Assembly: GCA_016432525.1 (NCBI GenBank)
Contig: CP066693.1
Span: 96,815 to 160,814 of the forward strand
Source of the DNA: Candidatus Woesebacteria bacterium
Lineage (GTDB): Bacteria > Patescibacteriota > Microgenomatia > UBA8517
Reading direction: 5' to 3'
DNA length: 64,000 nt
Shown here: piece after piece, positions 1 through 57,462 of the stretch
Numbering within the stretch: the first letter of the stretch is position 1
How the letters are laid out: each line of letters opens with the position of its first letter
Made by a program: the position numbers and the translations under genes
Notes under the pieces: generated by a model
Database searches by the model: none
What the model was told of the DNA's origin: nothing
The model's input: only the letters and a program-made list of their open reading frames with translations

Positions 1-1862
1 ACAGCCTTTATCTTATCTCCAACAATTTTTTCAAAATCATCACGATCCAAAGTTTCTTTCTTTAATAGTGCCTCAGAAATCTTATCTAGAAGTTTTCGAT
101 TTTTACTAACAAGCTTGACTGCTTCTTTGTGGCAATCTTCCATAATTTTTCTGATCTCAACATCAACTTTTTCCTGCATTGCAGGTGAAATTGGTGACGG
201 CTCCATCCAATTTGGATTTCCAAAATCATCATATCCTACTTGTGCCCCAAAGTTTATTGGTCCCAAAGAGCTCATTCCAAAATCCTCAACCATTGCTCGA
301 GCCAAACGAGTTGCAGTTTCAATATCAGATGCAGCTCCAGATGTAATATCATCAAACACAGCCTCCTCAGCAGCTCTTCCTCCAAGCATTGCAGTAATTT
401 GCTGCAAAATTCTTGATTTTGTCTCGTGGGTTCTATCGGCTGCAGGCGGAATAAGTGTATGCCCCAAACTCATTCCTCGAGCTACGATTGAAATTCTATG
501 AACTGGATCCATCAATGGAAGTGCATGGGTAACTACTGCATGTCCTGCCTCGTGATACGCAGTAATTTTCTTATCATCATCACTCTGAATTCTTCTCTTG
601 GCTGGCCCCATTTTGACTTTAGTTGCAGCCTCCTCGATATCTTCCATTTCAACTTCTTTTTTATTCTCGCGTGCTGCATGAATCGCTGCCTCATTAAGCA
701 TGTTTTCCAAATCTGCCCCAGAAAATCCAACAGTTCTGTCTGACACTCTATCCCAGTTAACCTCTTTTGAAAACTTCTTTCCCCTTGCATGAATCGAAAG
801 AATAGCCTTCCTTCCTTCACGGTCCGGCATATCCAAAGTTATTCTTCTATCAAACCTTCCAGGGCGGAGTAAAGCTGGATCCAAAAGATCACCACGATTA
901 GTTGCTGCGATAACAATTACATTATCATTTGGGGTAAATCCATCCATTTCAACCAAAATCTGATTTAAAGTTTGCTCGCGCTCATCATGTCCTCCAATAA
1001 AACCACCGCGACCACGCTGCCTCCCAATTGCATCAATTTCATCAATAAAGATAATTGAAGGAGCTGAAGCCTTAGCAGTAGCAAAAAGATCACGAACTCT
1101 GGATGCTCCTACTCCAACAAGCATTTCCATAAATTCAGATCCTGCCATTGAAAAATAAGAAACCCCCGCCTCCCCAGCAACAGCTCGTGCAAGTAAAGTT
1201 TTACCAACTCCAGATGGTCCAAAAAGTAAAACACCCTTTGGGGTTCTAGCTCCCATTGCTCGATATTTTGCAGGATGCCTCAAAAAATCAACTATTTCTT
1301 CAAGTTCTTTTTTTGCCTCATCAACTCCCGCAACATCTGCAAATGTCACAGACTGTTTTCCTTTTGCAAAAAGCTTTGCGCGTGATCTTCCAAATGAAAA
1401 TATATCCTGAGCTCCTTTGTTTTGAGCCCTCAGTAAAAATATAAAAAACAAAGCCATCAATCCAATAGGAAGAACCAATCCCACAATATCAGAAATAGCC
1501 TTAACTAAAGTTTGGTCAGAAACACTAAAAGAAACAGTTTTTGGATCAATTTTGGCTCTATCTAAAAGCTCAGGCAAAGAAATTGAAGATTCCTTTGTTG
1601 CAGTTTTTACACTTTTATCCTTATAAGTAATAACAAGTTTATTATCCTCGACAACAATATTAGAGACTTTCTGGTCTTTTACGTCATTCAAGGCCTGAGA
1701 TAAATCAACCTTTCCACCATCACCTTGATTTTGAAAAAAAGTCAAAATCATTGGAGTAAAAAAAAGTATTACAAGCCCTATTACGAGTACTCTCCAAAGG
1801 TTAAGTTTTAGTTTAATCTCAATTCTTCTTTTCTTTTGATTATTAGAGTTATTGTTTTTCAT
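1..1862 (-). CDS. ftsH: ATP-dependent zinc metalloprotease FtsH (partial, C-terminus runs off window start)
   Basis: Minus-strand translation from ATG at 1862 gives an N-terminal TM region, Walker A '[20 protein letters not shown]' (~1150-1240) and zinc motif 'HEAGHAVV' (~530-560). There is no stop before position 1, so it is absent from the ORF track as a partial ORF. Confidence 0.88.
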
Positions 1863-6378: not shown

Positions 6379-8352
6379 ATGGATACAGATATTACTCCTA
6401 AATACATTGGCTACGCTCGAAAATCTTCTGAAGATAATAAAGAAAGACAGGCTGCCTCACTTCCTGACCAGCTTTATGTTATCGACCAACTGAAATCCAA
6501 ATTGGGGCTGAAACTGGTTACTGAACTTCAGGAGAGTAAGTCTGCTCATATTCCACAACAGCGAGAGGCTTTCAAGGAGATGGTCAATCTTATCGAACAG
6601 GGAAAAGCCAATGCTATTGTTACTTGGCACGCTAACCGCTTGGCCAGAAATCCTGTTGATGGTGGTTACATCATTTTTCTGATGGACGACGGCAAGCTCC
6701 TTGAGATTCTTACACCCTCTCGAACTTATCGAAACACTCCCGAAGATAAGTTTATGCTGGGCCTGGAGTTTTCCCTCTCCAAAAAAGACAGCGACGACAA
6801 AAGCGTTGTGGTTAAACGAGGTCTGGAGAAAAAGTTGCGAGATGGTTGGAGGCCTGGCTGGGCACCTCTTGGATATTTGAACGACAAAGGAACTGAAAGT
6901 GGATTTCGGAGAATCTATGCTGACCCGAAGCGATTGCCATTTGTGAGGAAAATATTTGCACTCTTTCTGGCTGGGACACCTGCAACTGAAGTTTTGCGTA
7001 TATCTCAAGAAGAATGGCACCTTACAACACTCCAGCGAAAGAGAATCGGCGGGAAATCACTCTCTTTAAGTGAACTTTATTTGATGCTTAATAACCCCTT
7101 TTACTGCGGCAAGTTTGAGTATCCAATTGGCAGCGGTAGTTGGTATGAGAATAATTCCTCTCTTGAGCGGGCTGTCAGCGAAGAAGAATTTAACCAGGTT
7201 CAAGTTAAGCTGGGCAATATCAGCCAGTATTACACCAAGCACGACTACACTTATTCGGGCTTAATGAAATGTGGCGACTGTGCTTCGGGGATAGTGGTTG
7301 ACGGCAAGTGGCAGGTCATTTGCGCCAGTTGTAAGACTAAATTCCAAATCACCAACAAAAACAAAGACCGATGTACAAAGTGTGGCACGCTGATTGCTGA
7401 AATGACCAACCCCAAAATTCTCCATTACATTTACCACCGTTGCGGCCGAAAGAAAGACCGCAGTTGCCGAGAGTTAAGTATTAGTGAGAAGGAACTTGAG
7501 AGGCAGATTGACGAGAGGCTTTCAGAAATTGAACTTAATCCCTACTTTCTTGAGTGGGCAGTCAAACAAATTGCTCAAATGCACGAGGAGGAGAAATCAT
7601 TCAGAGAGGACACAATAGAGGCTACTAAGCGGGCCCACGACGATTGTAGAAGGCGGTTGGATAACTTGGTGGCTCTCAAGATTGCTCCAACAAACACCGA
7701 CGGGAGTATGTTAAGTGATGAAGAATTTAAGAGAAGAAAACTACCTCTTGAGGAAGAACTTAAAGGTATTGAGAAGCAATTGGTTAACATTGACGAACGG
7801 ATGATTCAGGCCAATAACGACACGGTCAGAGCCGTTACTTTCTGCACTCGAGCTAGAGAGAAATTTGCCACAGACGACCCCAAAGTTAAGCGTGATATTT
7901 TCGTGGGGCTTGGATTGCACCTAACATTAAGAGGTAAAAAGGTCGATTTTGACGCTCCACTATACTTTGAAAAGATAGACGAAATGAAATCCCGTGTTCC
8001 GATTATTGGAAGTAGGGTTGCACCTAATGAAAAGCCCGTCGATATCACCAAAATGGAGGCCTTTTCAGCCTCCATTCCTACCTTGTTGCGGGGCCTGGAG
8101 TCGGACCAGGTCTTGGAGATTATGAGCCTCCCGTGCGGCCACTACACTTCCCCGCATATAACTAACATGCCTATTATATCTCAAAAAAACAGACTTAACC
8201 ACTTTTTCCAGTTCGGATCTGGTAGTTTTACCTCTTTTCTTACTCTTTCAGGCACAAGCTTTCTAAGCTCATCATCTGGTGGCAACACCAAAACAATATC
8301 ATTAGGTTTAGAAAGCCCAAGGCTATCCCTAGCCTCTTTTTCTTTAAAATAG
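6379..8352 (+). CDS. Large serine recombinase (resolvase/integrase family). The native C-terminus is probably near ~8150-8180, and the ORF reads through into low-GC host DNA
   Basis: N-terminal resolvase domain 'YIGYARKSSEDN...ANAIVTWHANRLARN' with the catalytic Ser in ARKSS. Followed by a recombinase domain and a Cys-rich zinc ribbon (CGDCASG...CASCKTK...CTKCG...HYIYHRCGRKKDRSC) and a coiled coil. The last ~60 codons are low-GC and overlap the ftsB-like gene on the opposite strand. Confidence 0.85.
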   Translation: MDTDITPKYIGYARKSSEDNKERQAASLPDQLYVIDQLKSKLGLKLVTELQESKSAHIPQQREAFKEMVNLIEQGKANAIVTWHANRLARNPVDGGYIIFLMDDGKLLEILTPSRTYRNTPEDKFMLGLEFSLSKKDSDDKSVVVKRGLEKKLRDGWRPGWAPLGYLNDKGTESGFRRIYADPKRLPFVRKIFALFLAGTPATEVLRISQEEWHLTTLQRKRIGGKSLSLSELYLMLNNPFYCGKFEYPIGSGSWYENNSSLERAVSEEEFNQVQVKLGNISQYYTKHDYTYSGLMKCGDCASGIVVDGKWQVICASCKTKFQITNKNKDRCTKCGTLIAEMTNPKILHYIYHRCGRKKDRSCRELSISEKELERQIDERLSEIELNPYFLEWAVKQIAQMHEEEKSFREDTIEATKRAHDDCRRRLDNLVALKIAPTNTDGSMLSDEEFKRRKLPLEEELKGIEKQLVNIDERMIQANNDTVRAVTFCTRAREKFATDDPKVKRDIFVGLGLHLTLRGKKVDFDAPLYFEKIDEMKSRVPIIGSRVAPNEKPVDITKMEAFSASIPTLLRGLESDQVLEIMSLPCGHYTSPHITNMPIISQKNRLNHFFQFGSGSFTSFLTLSGTSFLSSSSGGNTKTISLGLESPRLSLASFSLK

Positions 8353-37916: not shown

Positions 37917-37926
37917 TTAGCGCCAC

Positions 37927-37995
37927 GCAGTCTACCGCGATTAAATCGGTACTGATGAGTCCTGCGAAGCTTTACGCGAAGTGGGACGAAACTGC
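37927..37995 (+). ncRNA. Hammerhead ribozyme motif (type III topology)
   Basis: gcaGUC|UACCG-cgauuaaau-CGGUA-CUGAUGA-GUCC-[21-nt loop]-GGAC-GAAAC-UGC. All core nucleotides are present (C3-A9 CUGAUGA, G10.1-C11.1, G12A13A14, A15.1-U16.1, GUC cleavage triplet at 37930-37932). Helix I is 5 bp, helix II 4 bp, helix III 5 bp. Confidence 0.7.
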
Positions 37996-38030
37996 AACTG
38001 CTGATCTTTCAAATAAGGAGACACTGCCCC

Positions 38031-54967: not shown

Positions 54968-55252
54968 CTCCCCCGGTAGGATTCGAACCTACGACCTTAT
55001 CCTTACTCGTACCCCGAAATTTCTTTCGGACGCGGAACTATATCTTACCCATATCATTTTTGATTTAGGGCCCGAGTGCATAGTTTCTGAACCTTCCATA
55101 AATCGTATTCATTCAGATTTATGGCTCGGCTGCGGGTCACCTTGCCAAAAAAGCGAGGGCTTCACGCAATTCTCACGGTTTACATCCTACAGTTTCCTGT
55201 AAGAGCTGCTAAGGAATCACAGGGATCCGCTCTACCGCTGAGCTACAGGGGA
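54968..55252 (-). tRNA. tRNA-Asn(GUU)-like gene interrupted by a group I intron (exon1 55219-55252, exon2 54968-55005)
   Basis: Spliced sequence UCCCCUG-UA-GCUC-AGCGGUA-GAGC-G-GAUCC-CUGU|UAA-GGAUA-AGGUC-GUAGG-UUCGAAU-CCUAC-CGGGGGA-G. U1-A72 and G73 match bacterial tRNA-Asn. The anticodon GUU is split between U35 and U36. Confidence 0.7.
55006..55218 (-). ncRNA. Group I intron (213 nt, no ORF)
   Basis: IGS 5'-UCCUUAGCAG pairs with the 3' exon UAAGGA (P10) and the 5' exon CUGU (P1, U-G at the splice site). Core elements P 'GAAUUGCGUGAA', Q 'CCGCAGCC', R 'GUUCAGAAACUA' and S 'AAGAUAUAGUUCC'. Terminal G precedes the 3' exon. Confidence 0.75.
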
Positions 55253-55462
55253 ATATAAAAGAACAGCCAATTATATCAAATCTCTTATGGCTTTGGAAGC
55301 TTAATTCTACCTCCATGGATTTCTCTATGACAATTGCACAAACTTCTAGTTAAACTTCTCGTGGACAAATCAAACTCCTTAGTTTTTTCGTCAATAGTGT
55401 TATACTTAGCTCTATCTTTATACATTCGGGTTTCTTTTGGCACTAGCTAATTTCTATACAAA

Positions 55463-56370: not shown

Positions 56371-57462
56371 TTACTCCAGATAGTCCTGAAGTTTCTTACG
56401 TCTCGAAGGGTGCCTCAACTTTCTTAAGGCTTTTGCTTCAATTTGTCTGATTCTTTCACGAGTTACTCCAAATACTTTTCCAACTTCTTCCAAGGTTCTT
56501 GGAAGGCCTCCATCAAGCCCAAACCGTAAACTCAAAACTTTGGCCTCCCTTTCAGAAAGAGTTGATAAAACCTCCTCCAAATGGTCTTTCAAAAGCTGTT
56601 TTGATGCTGCATCAACTGGTGATGGCTGAGATTCATCAGGAATAAAATCTCCCAAAAAACTTTCTTCCTCTTCTCCAACTGGTGCCTCAAGCGATGTTGT
56701 CTCCTGGGAAATTTTAAATATCTCACGAATTCTATCTCCAGAAAGTTCAAGTTCAGCTCCAATCTCCTCAGGTGTTGGCTCTCGCCCAAGCTCCTGCATT
56801 AATCTCTGAGAAGTTCTGTAAAGCTTATTTATAGTCTCAACCATATGCACAGGAATACGTATGGTCCGAGCCTGGTCAGCAATAGCTCGAGTAATTGCCT
56901 GTCTAATCCACCATGTCGCATATGTTGAAAATTTATAACCTCTTCTCCAGTCATATTTTTCAACAGCTCGTATAAGTCCCTGATTTCCCTCTTGGATAAG
57001 ATCCAAAAGTGAAAGTCCTCGCCCAATATACTTTTTGGCAATGGATACAACTAAACGAAGATTTGACTCAATAAGTTTATCTTTAGCTCTTCTATCGTTT
57101 TTCTCAAATCTTTTTGCGTATTCAACTTCCTCTTCAGCGTCCAGAAGAGGAAATCTTCCAATTTCTCTTAAATATTGGCGAACAGGGTCCGTTGACTCAG
57201 ATCCTTCAAGTTTGGAAAGTATTTCAATCTCCTGTTCAATATGTGAAGCTTCCCTTCCTTCTTCAAGCTCTTCAGTAGTCACCGACTCGAAAACATCAAT
57301 TCCTTCTGCAAGTAACTCTTCATAAAGGTTATCAAGCTCGATTATTCTTTTTTCAGCATCAAAAAATACTTCTAAAATTTCATCCTGTGTCAAAAAACCT
57401 TGTTCGCGGGCTTTTTTAAGAAGATCTTGTGTGGCTTTTCTAAACATAAATAACCCTGTCAA
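56371..57462 (-). CDS. rpoD: RNA polymerase sigma-70 factor
   Basis: Regions 1.2 through 4 are present ('[13 protein letters not shown]', '[17 protein letters not shown]', '[20 protein letters not shown]'). Confidence 0.9.

Follow-up and report, generated by a model that had tools for sequence, protein, structure and literature searches.

A group I intron with an A-U pair at its predicted guanosine site in a split tRNA-Asn(GUU) gene of Candidatus Woesebacteria

Do two tRNA-like half genes, lying 213 nt apart in the genome of a Candidatus Woesebacteria bacterium, encode a single tRNA, and how could the insert between them be removed when the base pair expected to hold its guanosine has been exchanged? 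The window, by which we mean the whole 64-kb stretch of DNA analysed (contig CP066693.1), carries this split gene on its minus strand, and all positions given below are coordinates in it. We are highly confident that the locus is a tRNA-Asn(GUU) gene interrupted between U35 and U36 by a 213-nt group I intron of the self-splicing type that lacks an open reading frame (ORF). The host belongs to the Patescibacteria: RpoD in the window (56371-57462, minus strand) matches with 100% identity an NCBI protein that bears the name Candidatus Woesebacteria bacterium, and the few neighbouring matches with an organism name are all from Woesebacteria or the Patescibacteria group, except one labelled just 'bacterium'.

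The split gene and the fold of its intron

The 5' exon (55252-55219, minus strand) is 34 nt long, ends in ...CCCUGU (...GGAUCCCUGU) and supplies the 5' strand of the acceptor stem, the D arm, the 5' strand of the anticodon stem and the loop nucleotides C32, U33, G34 and U35. It is followed by the 213-nt intron (55218-55006, GAUUCCUUAGCAG...GGGGUACGAG), identified by a significant though sub-threshold RF00028 match and by covariation, and by a 38-nt 3' exon (55005-54968), which starts UAAGGAUAAGG, reads UAAGGAUAAGGUCGUAGGUUCGAAUCCUACCGGGGGAG and contributes U36, A37 and A38, the 3' strand of the anticodon stem, the variable loop, the T arm, the 3' strand of the acceptor stem and the discriminator G73, where it stops, leaving CCA absent from the gene. 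When joined, the exons form a 72-nt cloverleaf, identified by ARAGORN as tRNA-Asn(GUU), with the predicted junction CCCUGU-UAAGGA, i.e. GATCCCTGT followed by TAAGGATAAGG. No ORF of more than 45 amino acids overlaps the intron, and the gene is missed both by ARAGORN with default settings and by Rfam at the gathering threshold.

With permissive thresholds, RF00028 matched positions 55013-55228 (minus strand) over the full length of the model (1-253) with 49.4 bits and an E-value of 1.4e-11 in a local search, or 1.5e-09 for the whole window, in which this was the sole group I match. The core elements P, Q, R and S (GAAUUGCGUGAA, CCGCAGCC, GUUCAGAAACUA and AAGAUAUAGUUCC) are each present in the intron. 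To examine the fold, we aligned 16 of the 19 distinct sequences of the clade to which the intron belongs and tested a structure comprising P1, P2, P3, P4, P5/5a, P6/6a, P7, P8, P9.0, P9 and P10 together with the tRNA arms. Standard pairs are formed in 95.7% of 1307 cells (83 pairs, 16 sequences) and changes on both sides occur in 36 of the 83 pairs; none of 500 shuffles did as well, and slid controls gave 34-45%.

The internal guide UCCUUAGCAG (55206..55215) is present in the sequence that the initial annotation had proposed, but starts at intron nucleotide 4, after GAU, and not at nucleotide 1. Its UCCUUA part (55210-55215) forms a 6-bp P10 with UAAGGA of the 3' exon, and its GCAG part (55206-55209) pairs with CUGU of the 5' exon to give P1, in which U35 and G10 form a wobble. 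All four P1 pairs, the U-G wobble included, are invariant in the 16 sequences. P10 is paired in 95.8% of cells, with two compensatory pairs that follow the exon sequence: UCCUUA/UAAGGA in the window becomes UUCUUA/UAAGAA in one relative (L043) and AGUUA/UAACU in another (L124).

Compensatory changes are also abundant in P2, P5, P6a, P8 and P9. P2 (55186..55203) is a 7-bp hairpin with a GAAA loop, in which all seven pairs are compensatory. The 5' strand of P3, CCGUG (55174..55178), pairs with its 3' strand CUCGG (55072..55076) in 96.3% of cells, with two compensatory pairs. The P4-P5/P5a-P6/P6a domain (55091..55168) contains UGCGUG...CCCGCA, P5 and the 9-bp P6a hairpin, and its compensatory changes fall in P5 and P6a, P4 being nearly invariant among relatives. 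P7 is made up of GAAACUA (55081..55087) and UAGUUC (55035..55040). The P8 hairpin (55048..55070), with six compensatory pairs, carries the receptor-like motif CCUAAA...UAUGG, which we take to resemble the 11-nt tetraloop receptor. P9.0 (CGC/(A)CG), no more than consistent with pairing as it is invariant or varies on one side, encloses a P9 hairpin with a GAAA loop and three compensatory pairs (together 55008..55034). The last intron nucleotide, omega-G (55006), follows an unpaired A, and all 19 members of the clade have a tail ending in CGAG. By eye, only 1 nt separates the P3 3' strand from P8, leaving no P7.1/P7.2, and in this respect the intron looks IC3-like; Patescibacteria introns have been placed in subgroup IA by means of covariance models (Nakagawa et al., PMC13011429).

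A separate observation concerns the 5' strand of P4, at the point AATTG^CG.GAAG. Members of the same clade carry an extra T here (L125, L126, L133 and L139) or hairpin insertions of approx. 30-45 nt (L127/L131, L137 and L140), and the point appears to be a tolerated site of expansion within the catalytic core.

The tRNA arms behave in the same way as the ribozyme helices. The acceptor, D and T stems are paired in 100% of cells, with compensatory changes, and the anticodon stem from 28:42 to 31:39 is likewise 100% paired, all four pairs being compensatory, with its strands lying 199-246 nt apart in the alignment; position 27:43 is purine-purine in every aligned sequence. As the anticodon stem covaries across the split, the two halves must encode one selected tRNA, which would be functional only after exact removal of the insert. 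As comparative evidence, these data show the fold of the intron and its boundaries, and also that the ribozyme helices and the tRNA are each under selection.

Most of what the initial annotation had read from the letters therefore stands. The halves are exactly 213 nt apart, the joined exons are called Asn(GUU), and the 35/36 split of the anticodon is fixed by P1, P10 and the intron-less alleles described below; the guide pairs with UAAGGA and with CUGU through a U-G wobble, the intron ends in G, and all four core elements and the lack of an ORF were correctly noted. Its proposed checks, an RF00028 search and a test of the P1-P9 fold, gave a match of 49.4 bits, just under the gathering cut-off, and covariation support that extends to P9.0 and P10. 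What had gone unnoticed was an A-U pair in R and S in place of the guanosine-site G-C.

On this basis, we propose a route to the mature tRNA. The pre-tRNA would be transcribed from its own promoter, probably the extended -10 element TGnTATAAT (TGATATAAT, 55270..55278, minus strand), which we read in the sequence 17 nt upstream of where the mature tRNA begins; the element recurs at equal distance in most intron-containing relatives and also ahead of intron-less genes, and a consensus promoter scan picked another, less plausible hexamer pairing. The intron would fold into P1 (CUGU/GCAG, with U35-G), P2, the P4-P6 domain, P3-P7-P8 with a P3/P7 pseudoknot, P9.0/P9 and the 6-bp P10. By homology with validated Patescibacteria introns, a free nucleoside cofactor would attack after U35, whereupon omega-G would enter the same pocket and the exons would be ligated to ...CCCUGU-UAAGGA.... 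The product would be the 72-nt tRNA-Asn(GUU), to which CCA, being unencoded, would be added later.

The guanosine-site pair in P7

In the Rfam alignment, the upper-case consensus GACUA of the R element reads AACUA in the window and UAGUC of the S element reads UAGUU. P7 of the Tetrahymena intron consists of C262-G312, a bulged A263, G264-C311, A265-U310 and C266-G309, with G264-C311 forming the base triple both with exogenous G and with omega-G (PMC9943679). Aligned with it, P7 of the window intron consists of G132-C184, a bulged A133, A134-U183, A135-U182 and C136-G181; G132, A133 and A134 occupy Tetrahymena positions 262, 263 and 264, and U183 that of C311. The guanosine-site pair is thus A134-U183 (55085/55036), not G-C. 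The bulge could conceivably shift among the three As to give another register of P7, and even then an A-U would lie beside G132-C184.

The pair is A:U in 19/19 distinct clade members (3' strand TAGTTC), as against G:C in 14/14 canonical relatives, which read GAGACTA/TAGTCC and include both experimentally validated introns as well as L031 and L386. The 3' strand of P7 lay outside the search pattern with which the clade was recovered. P7 is invariant inside the clade and covaries (G:C versus A:U) against the canonical relatives, so that at the level of sequence the exchange is a clean compensatory change fixed in the clade. When viral contigs were scanned with a pattern that permitted A or G at this position, G was found in 125/125 related cores among the matches listed. 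The core CCGCAGCCRAGCC..GGAAGGTTCAGARACTA is itself very common in IMG/VR viral contigs, with at least 120 loci (L141-L260); some contigs hold two to three copies and, among the matches listed, a few are giant-virus metagenome-assembled genomes. Neither 'atagtt' nor 'cagaaacta' occurs in the part of the tables of Nakagawa et al. that we consulted, and the open-access literature searched reports no natural A-U guanosine site, though this is no proof that such a report does not exist. On grounds of homology we class the element as a group I intron, and we treat the A-U pair as a variant of a conserved G-C feature, one that looks to be new in the window intron and its clade.

The exchange matters as the literature regards the guanosine-site G-C as the only pair of the catalytic core that is strictly invariant, and its change in Tetrahymena switches nucleoside specificity. 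The G-C pair has been described as completely conserved, with G264A serving as an inactive control (PMC5192423, PMC2860135), and the hydrogen bonds of the canonical triple use O6 and N7 of the G and N4 of the C (PMC2588497). As an A-U pair cannot satisfy this scheme, the canonical G.G-C triple cannot form in the clade, and nucleoside recognition there must differ somehow. Omega is nevertheless G in 19/19 clade members, and the tail consists of a 3-bp P9.0, an unpaired A and omega-G (GCGAG in 18 members and ACGAG in the window). The view that the clade is a natural, functional group I lineage with an A-U guanosine pair, reading omega-G and perhaps also the free cofactor differently from all characterised group I introns, seems to us evenly poised on this comparative evidence. 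Such a lineage might use adenosine or ATP in the first step, or might recognize G through a non-canonical G.A-U triple.

For the window intron itself, splicing with altered nucleoside chemistry would be a variant of the explanation given above rather than an alternative to it, and we regard it as a tentative proposal with somewhat more against it than for it. The first step may perhaps proceed with adenosine or ATP, or G may be recognized in a shifted G.A-U triple, perhaps with the aid of the tail of the clade. This is favoured by the strict division between A:U and G:C in the clade and its canonical relatives, by the lack of A in any of the 125 listed viral cores despite a pattern that allowed it, by the contacts that A-U cannot supply, and by the CGAG tail of all 19 members where canonical relatives mostly have xGUG. 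Against it stands the retention of omega-G in every member. The Tetrahymena G264A:C311U mutant, in the work of Michel (1989) and of Been and Perrotta (1991), both cited in PMC5192423, reportedly prefers 2-aminopurine or adenosine, and its exon ligation is reportedly blocked with omega-G and requires omega-A.

Far less probable, and in our judgement very unlikely, is that the intron is a decayed, non-splicing relic in a pseudogene, the A-U pair being part of the decay and another tRNA-Asn serving the cell. Complete conservation of the G-C pair and the inactive G264A control would fit such a relic, as would an RF00028 score just under the cut-off and a gene scan limited to the 64-kb window. But the members of the clade diverge by up to approx. 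30% from the window copy and yet keep all helices by compensatory changes, the exon stems are 100% paired across the aligned members, unlike those of a dead element, and the G-to-A and C-to-U changes compensate each other and are fixed in the clade. Furthermore, the gene occupies the locus at which relatives hold an intron-less tRNA-Asn, and genes with and without an intron for one anticodon seldom coexist in a genome (Nakagawa et al., PMC13011429).

Several points weigh against our reading of the locus as a tRNA-Asn(GUU) gene with a splicing intron and should be taken together. The RF00028 score is 0.6 bits under the gathering cut-off of 50. The window copy has one mismatch each in P3 (U-U), P4 (U-C) and P9.0 (C-A). 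Its single-sequence minimum free energy fold recovers P2, P6a and P9 but is statistically unremarkable (z = -1.55), for which reason covariation was used instead as evidence for the fold. The inventory of tRNA-Asn genes of the host covers the 64-kb window. Self-splicing of the window intron is inferred from validated relatives, all of them canonical, and in view of the behaviour ascribed to the Tetrahymena double mutant, efficient GTP-dependent self-splicing cannot be assumed for the clade. A diversified natural A-U clade that keeps omega-G offers a ready test system of approx. 200 nt for how group I ribozymes can re-solve nucleoside recognition, and could reveal if cofactors besides guanosine are used by any natural intron.

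Splice site, relatives and synteny

The least likely reading, which we consider almost certainly wrong, is that the gene is a tRNA-Thr(AGU) with its intron at 33/34 (CCCU/GUGAUU...GUACG/AGUAAGG). ARAGORN run with -i on the precursor does report Thr(AGU), placing the 213-nt intron at 32-33 by the numbering of the program, and with the 33/34 boundary, too, position -1 is U and omega is G. However, the P1 U-G wobble at U35 and a P10 that begins exactly at U36 are found in 16/16 relatives, no guide complementary to CCCU with a wobble G could be seen by eye, and intron-less orthologues read CUGUUAA. In addition, U1-A72 and G73 suit a bacterial tRNA-Asn rather than a tRNA-Thr. We place the site at 35/36 because of the wobble and the start of P10, the Rfam alignment of P1 and the syntenic intron-less genes. 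The two-base shift is a recurrent tool error, and for a published intron 35/36 was confirmed by sequencing of the spliced product (Nakagawa et al., PMC13011429). The sequence of the ligated product would separate the two, with CCCUAGUAAGG predicted for Thr and CCCUGUUAAGG for 35/36. In Patescibacteria the tRNA-Asn gene is often hidden in this way, so that standard annotation tools miss it or call it Thr, which affects tRNA counts and estimates of genome completeness. Omega at A212 with shifted splice sites was rejected, as the loop would then have 6 or 8 nt, or the anticodon would be GGU with a G-C pair at the cleavage site, and the group I core rules out an archaeal-type or protein-spliced tRNA intron.

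Relatives were recovered with a pattern confined to the intron core (CCGCAGCCGAGCC..GGAAGGTTCAGAAACTA), which identified 19 metagenome contigs, and with a loose pattern (CTGT..TTAGCAG..AATTGCG) on genome contigs, which returned 120 loci of which three were real. Two of the latter (L043 and L077) were added to the clade and the third (L031) is a more distant Parcubacteria copy. Every one of these introns sits in a tRNA-Asn at 35/36, between CUGU and UAA. The clade comprises 19 distinct sequences, the window copy included, and the other members are 68.7-77.2% identical to it. A scan of viral contigs with the 14-mer AGGTTCAGAAACTA yielded chance matches only, and Rfam recognized no group I intron among the six best candidates.

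The two genome contigs added to the clade are titled 'uncultured Gammaproteobacteria bacterium', a host that we rejected on account of their Woesebacteria-like RpoD and synteny. L043 (CAZCNT010000039.1) has the order DnaG-RpoD-tRNA-Asn with an RpoD 86% identical to that of the window, and L077 (CAZWNZ010000001.1) has a partial RpoD match at the DNA level (75% over approx. 350 nt) beside the same intron, so that both labels are probably wrong.

The neighbourhood of the split gene, i.e. tmRNA, a tRNA-Ser/Arg cluster, DnaG, RpoD, (polysaccharide deacetylase) and tRNA-Asn, is kept in relatives, which allowed the locus to be compared directly. Related Woesebacteria hold a syntenic intron-less tRNA-Asn(GUU) at L392 4509-4581, L388 10286-10360, L390 8010-8082, L391 7045-7117, L384 7610-7682 (L384/5) and L381 9240-9312. 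These genes read ...CUGUUAAG..., with the same CUGU/UAAGG junction, and agree with the predicted product at 59-64 of 72 positions, no gap being needed; the comparison with related tRNA-Asn loci that the initial annotation had called for thus finds genes collinear with the predicted spliced tRNA. The two closest relatives, whose RpoD is 92% (L392) and 89% (L388) identical to that of the window, are both intron-less. In L386/L387 (RpoD 86% identical) a different, canonical and ORF-less group I intron of 207 nt, with an RF00028 score of 84.1 bits, occupies the syntenic 35/36 site (L386 tRNA-Asn locus 6836-7115). The locus therefore exists in three states in Woesebacteria, intron-less, with a canonical G-C-site intron and with an A-U-site intron, and at least two intron lineages occupy 35/36, since the L386/L387 intron differs from that of the window. 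From this patchy presence among close relatives we infer that introns were gained or lost repeatedly with no homing endonuclease involved, a process for whose study the locus should be useful.

Other features were observed at these loci and in the window. In L384 (7643-9190, minus strand) and L386 (7082-8839, minus strand), genes for large serine recombinases adjoin the 3' end of tRNA-Asn or overlap with it, which suggests integrated elements that target the tRNA-Asn gene. In L382/L383, an ORF with faint LAGLIDADG matches (366-1367, plus strand) lies directly upstream of, and overlaps, a tRNA-Ser(GCU) (1353-1441). The window itself contains a sub-threshold Rfam Hammerhead_3 candidate (37925-37997, plus strand; 33.8 bits and E 0.002, where the cut-off is 48.5 bits), whose type III core appears intact by eye, with GCAGUC/UACCG-loop-CGGUA CUGAUGAG, a long stem II and GAAAC UGC. 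A tRNA-Ile with anticodon UAU (10485-10559, minus strand) was called by ARAGORN and by the Rfam tRNA model (72.5 bits); tRNA-Ile(UAU) is an uncommon bacterial means of reading AUA. ARAGORN also called a tRNA-Met(CAU) (8085-8156, minus strand) that the Rfam tRNA model did not report at E<=0.01, and its odd D arm is similar to that of Patescibacteria tRNA-Met in Table S3 of Nakagawa et al.

Comparison with known systems

The initial annotation had considered an Asn(GUU) host unusual among bacterial tRNA introns, a view that has been overtaken by the literature. A preprint by Williams (bioRxiv 2020, 10.1101/2020.01.27.920355) raised the known types of group I intron in bacterial tRNA genes from 4 to 21, and Nakagawa et al. 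(PMC13011429) refer to it for the Asn.4Ug type and for the way in which this is confused with Thr.2Ug. The latter (mSystems 2026) examined 95 complete Patescibacteria genomes and described group I introns at 35/36 in 15 tRNA-Asn(GUU) and 3 tRNA-Asp(GUC) genes. They noted the Thr 33/34 misannotation seen here as well, and for GCA_016700035.1 they demonstrated that self-splicing in vitro is precise, with an omega-G-to-C control and a sequenced product. The tRNA-Asn(GUU) 35/36 class is thus already published, and the window copy, which is absent from the sequences of Nakagawa et al., is a new Woesebacteria member of it.

The window intron shares with the published Patescibacteria Asn introns the host gene, the site, the phylum, U at -1 and omega-G, and is ORF-less, as most of them lack a homing endonuclease. 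As with the published introns, ARAGORN and standard tools overlook the gene or assign it to Thr at 33/34, and the core blocks GAAUUGCG.GAA, CCGCAGCC, GGAAGGUUCAGA.ACUA and AUAGU.C are shared. Over 198 core columns, the window intron is approx. 54% identical to the validated GCA_016700035.1 tRNA-Asn intron, 47-55% identical to 11 published tRNA-Asn introns and 59.6% identical to the unpublished L031. It differs from the published introns by A-U rather than G-C in P7, by the tail GCG-A-G rather than xGUG, and by a long (6 bp) P10 that reaches into the anticodon-stem strand. In a rough neighbour-joining tree its clade, found so far only in tRNA-Asn, is monophyletic, separate from and sister to the published Asn introns. 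By comparison, the L386/L387 intron resembles the validated Microgenomatia tRNA-Asp(GUC) 35/36 intron, is approx. 46% identical to that of the window and has a canonical P7 (GUAGAGACUA/AUAGUCC).

Like the IC3 introns of Azoarcus tRNA-Ile and Anabaena/Nostoc tRNA-Leu(UAA), the window intron has GAAA loops on P2 and P9 and no P7.1/P7.2, and receptor motifs of the CCUAAG...UAUGG type are common to both. The IC3 introns differ in host tRNA and in site (34/35, or 36/37 for Azoarcus tRNA-Ile), and their guanosine site is G-C, being G130-C177 in Azoarcus; a numbering check on the Azoarcus sequence was consistent with this. A counterpart of the A-U pair is found in Tetrahymena G264A:C311U, which carries the same substitution but was engineered in the laboratory as a double mutant of an IC1 intron, whereas the clade of the window intron is natural, diversified and keeps omega-G.

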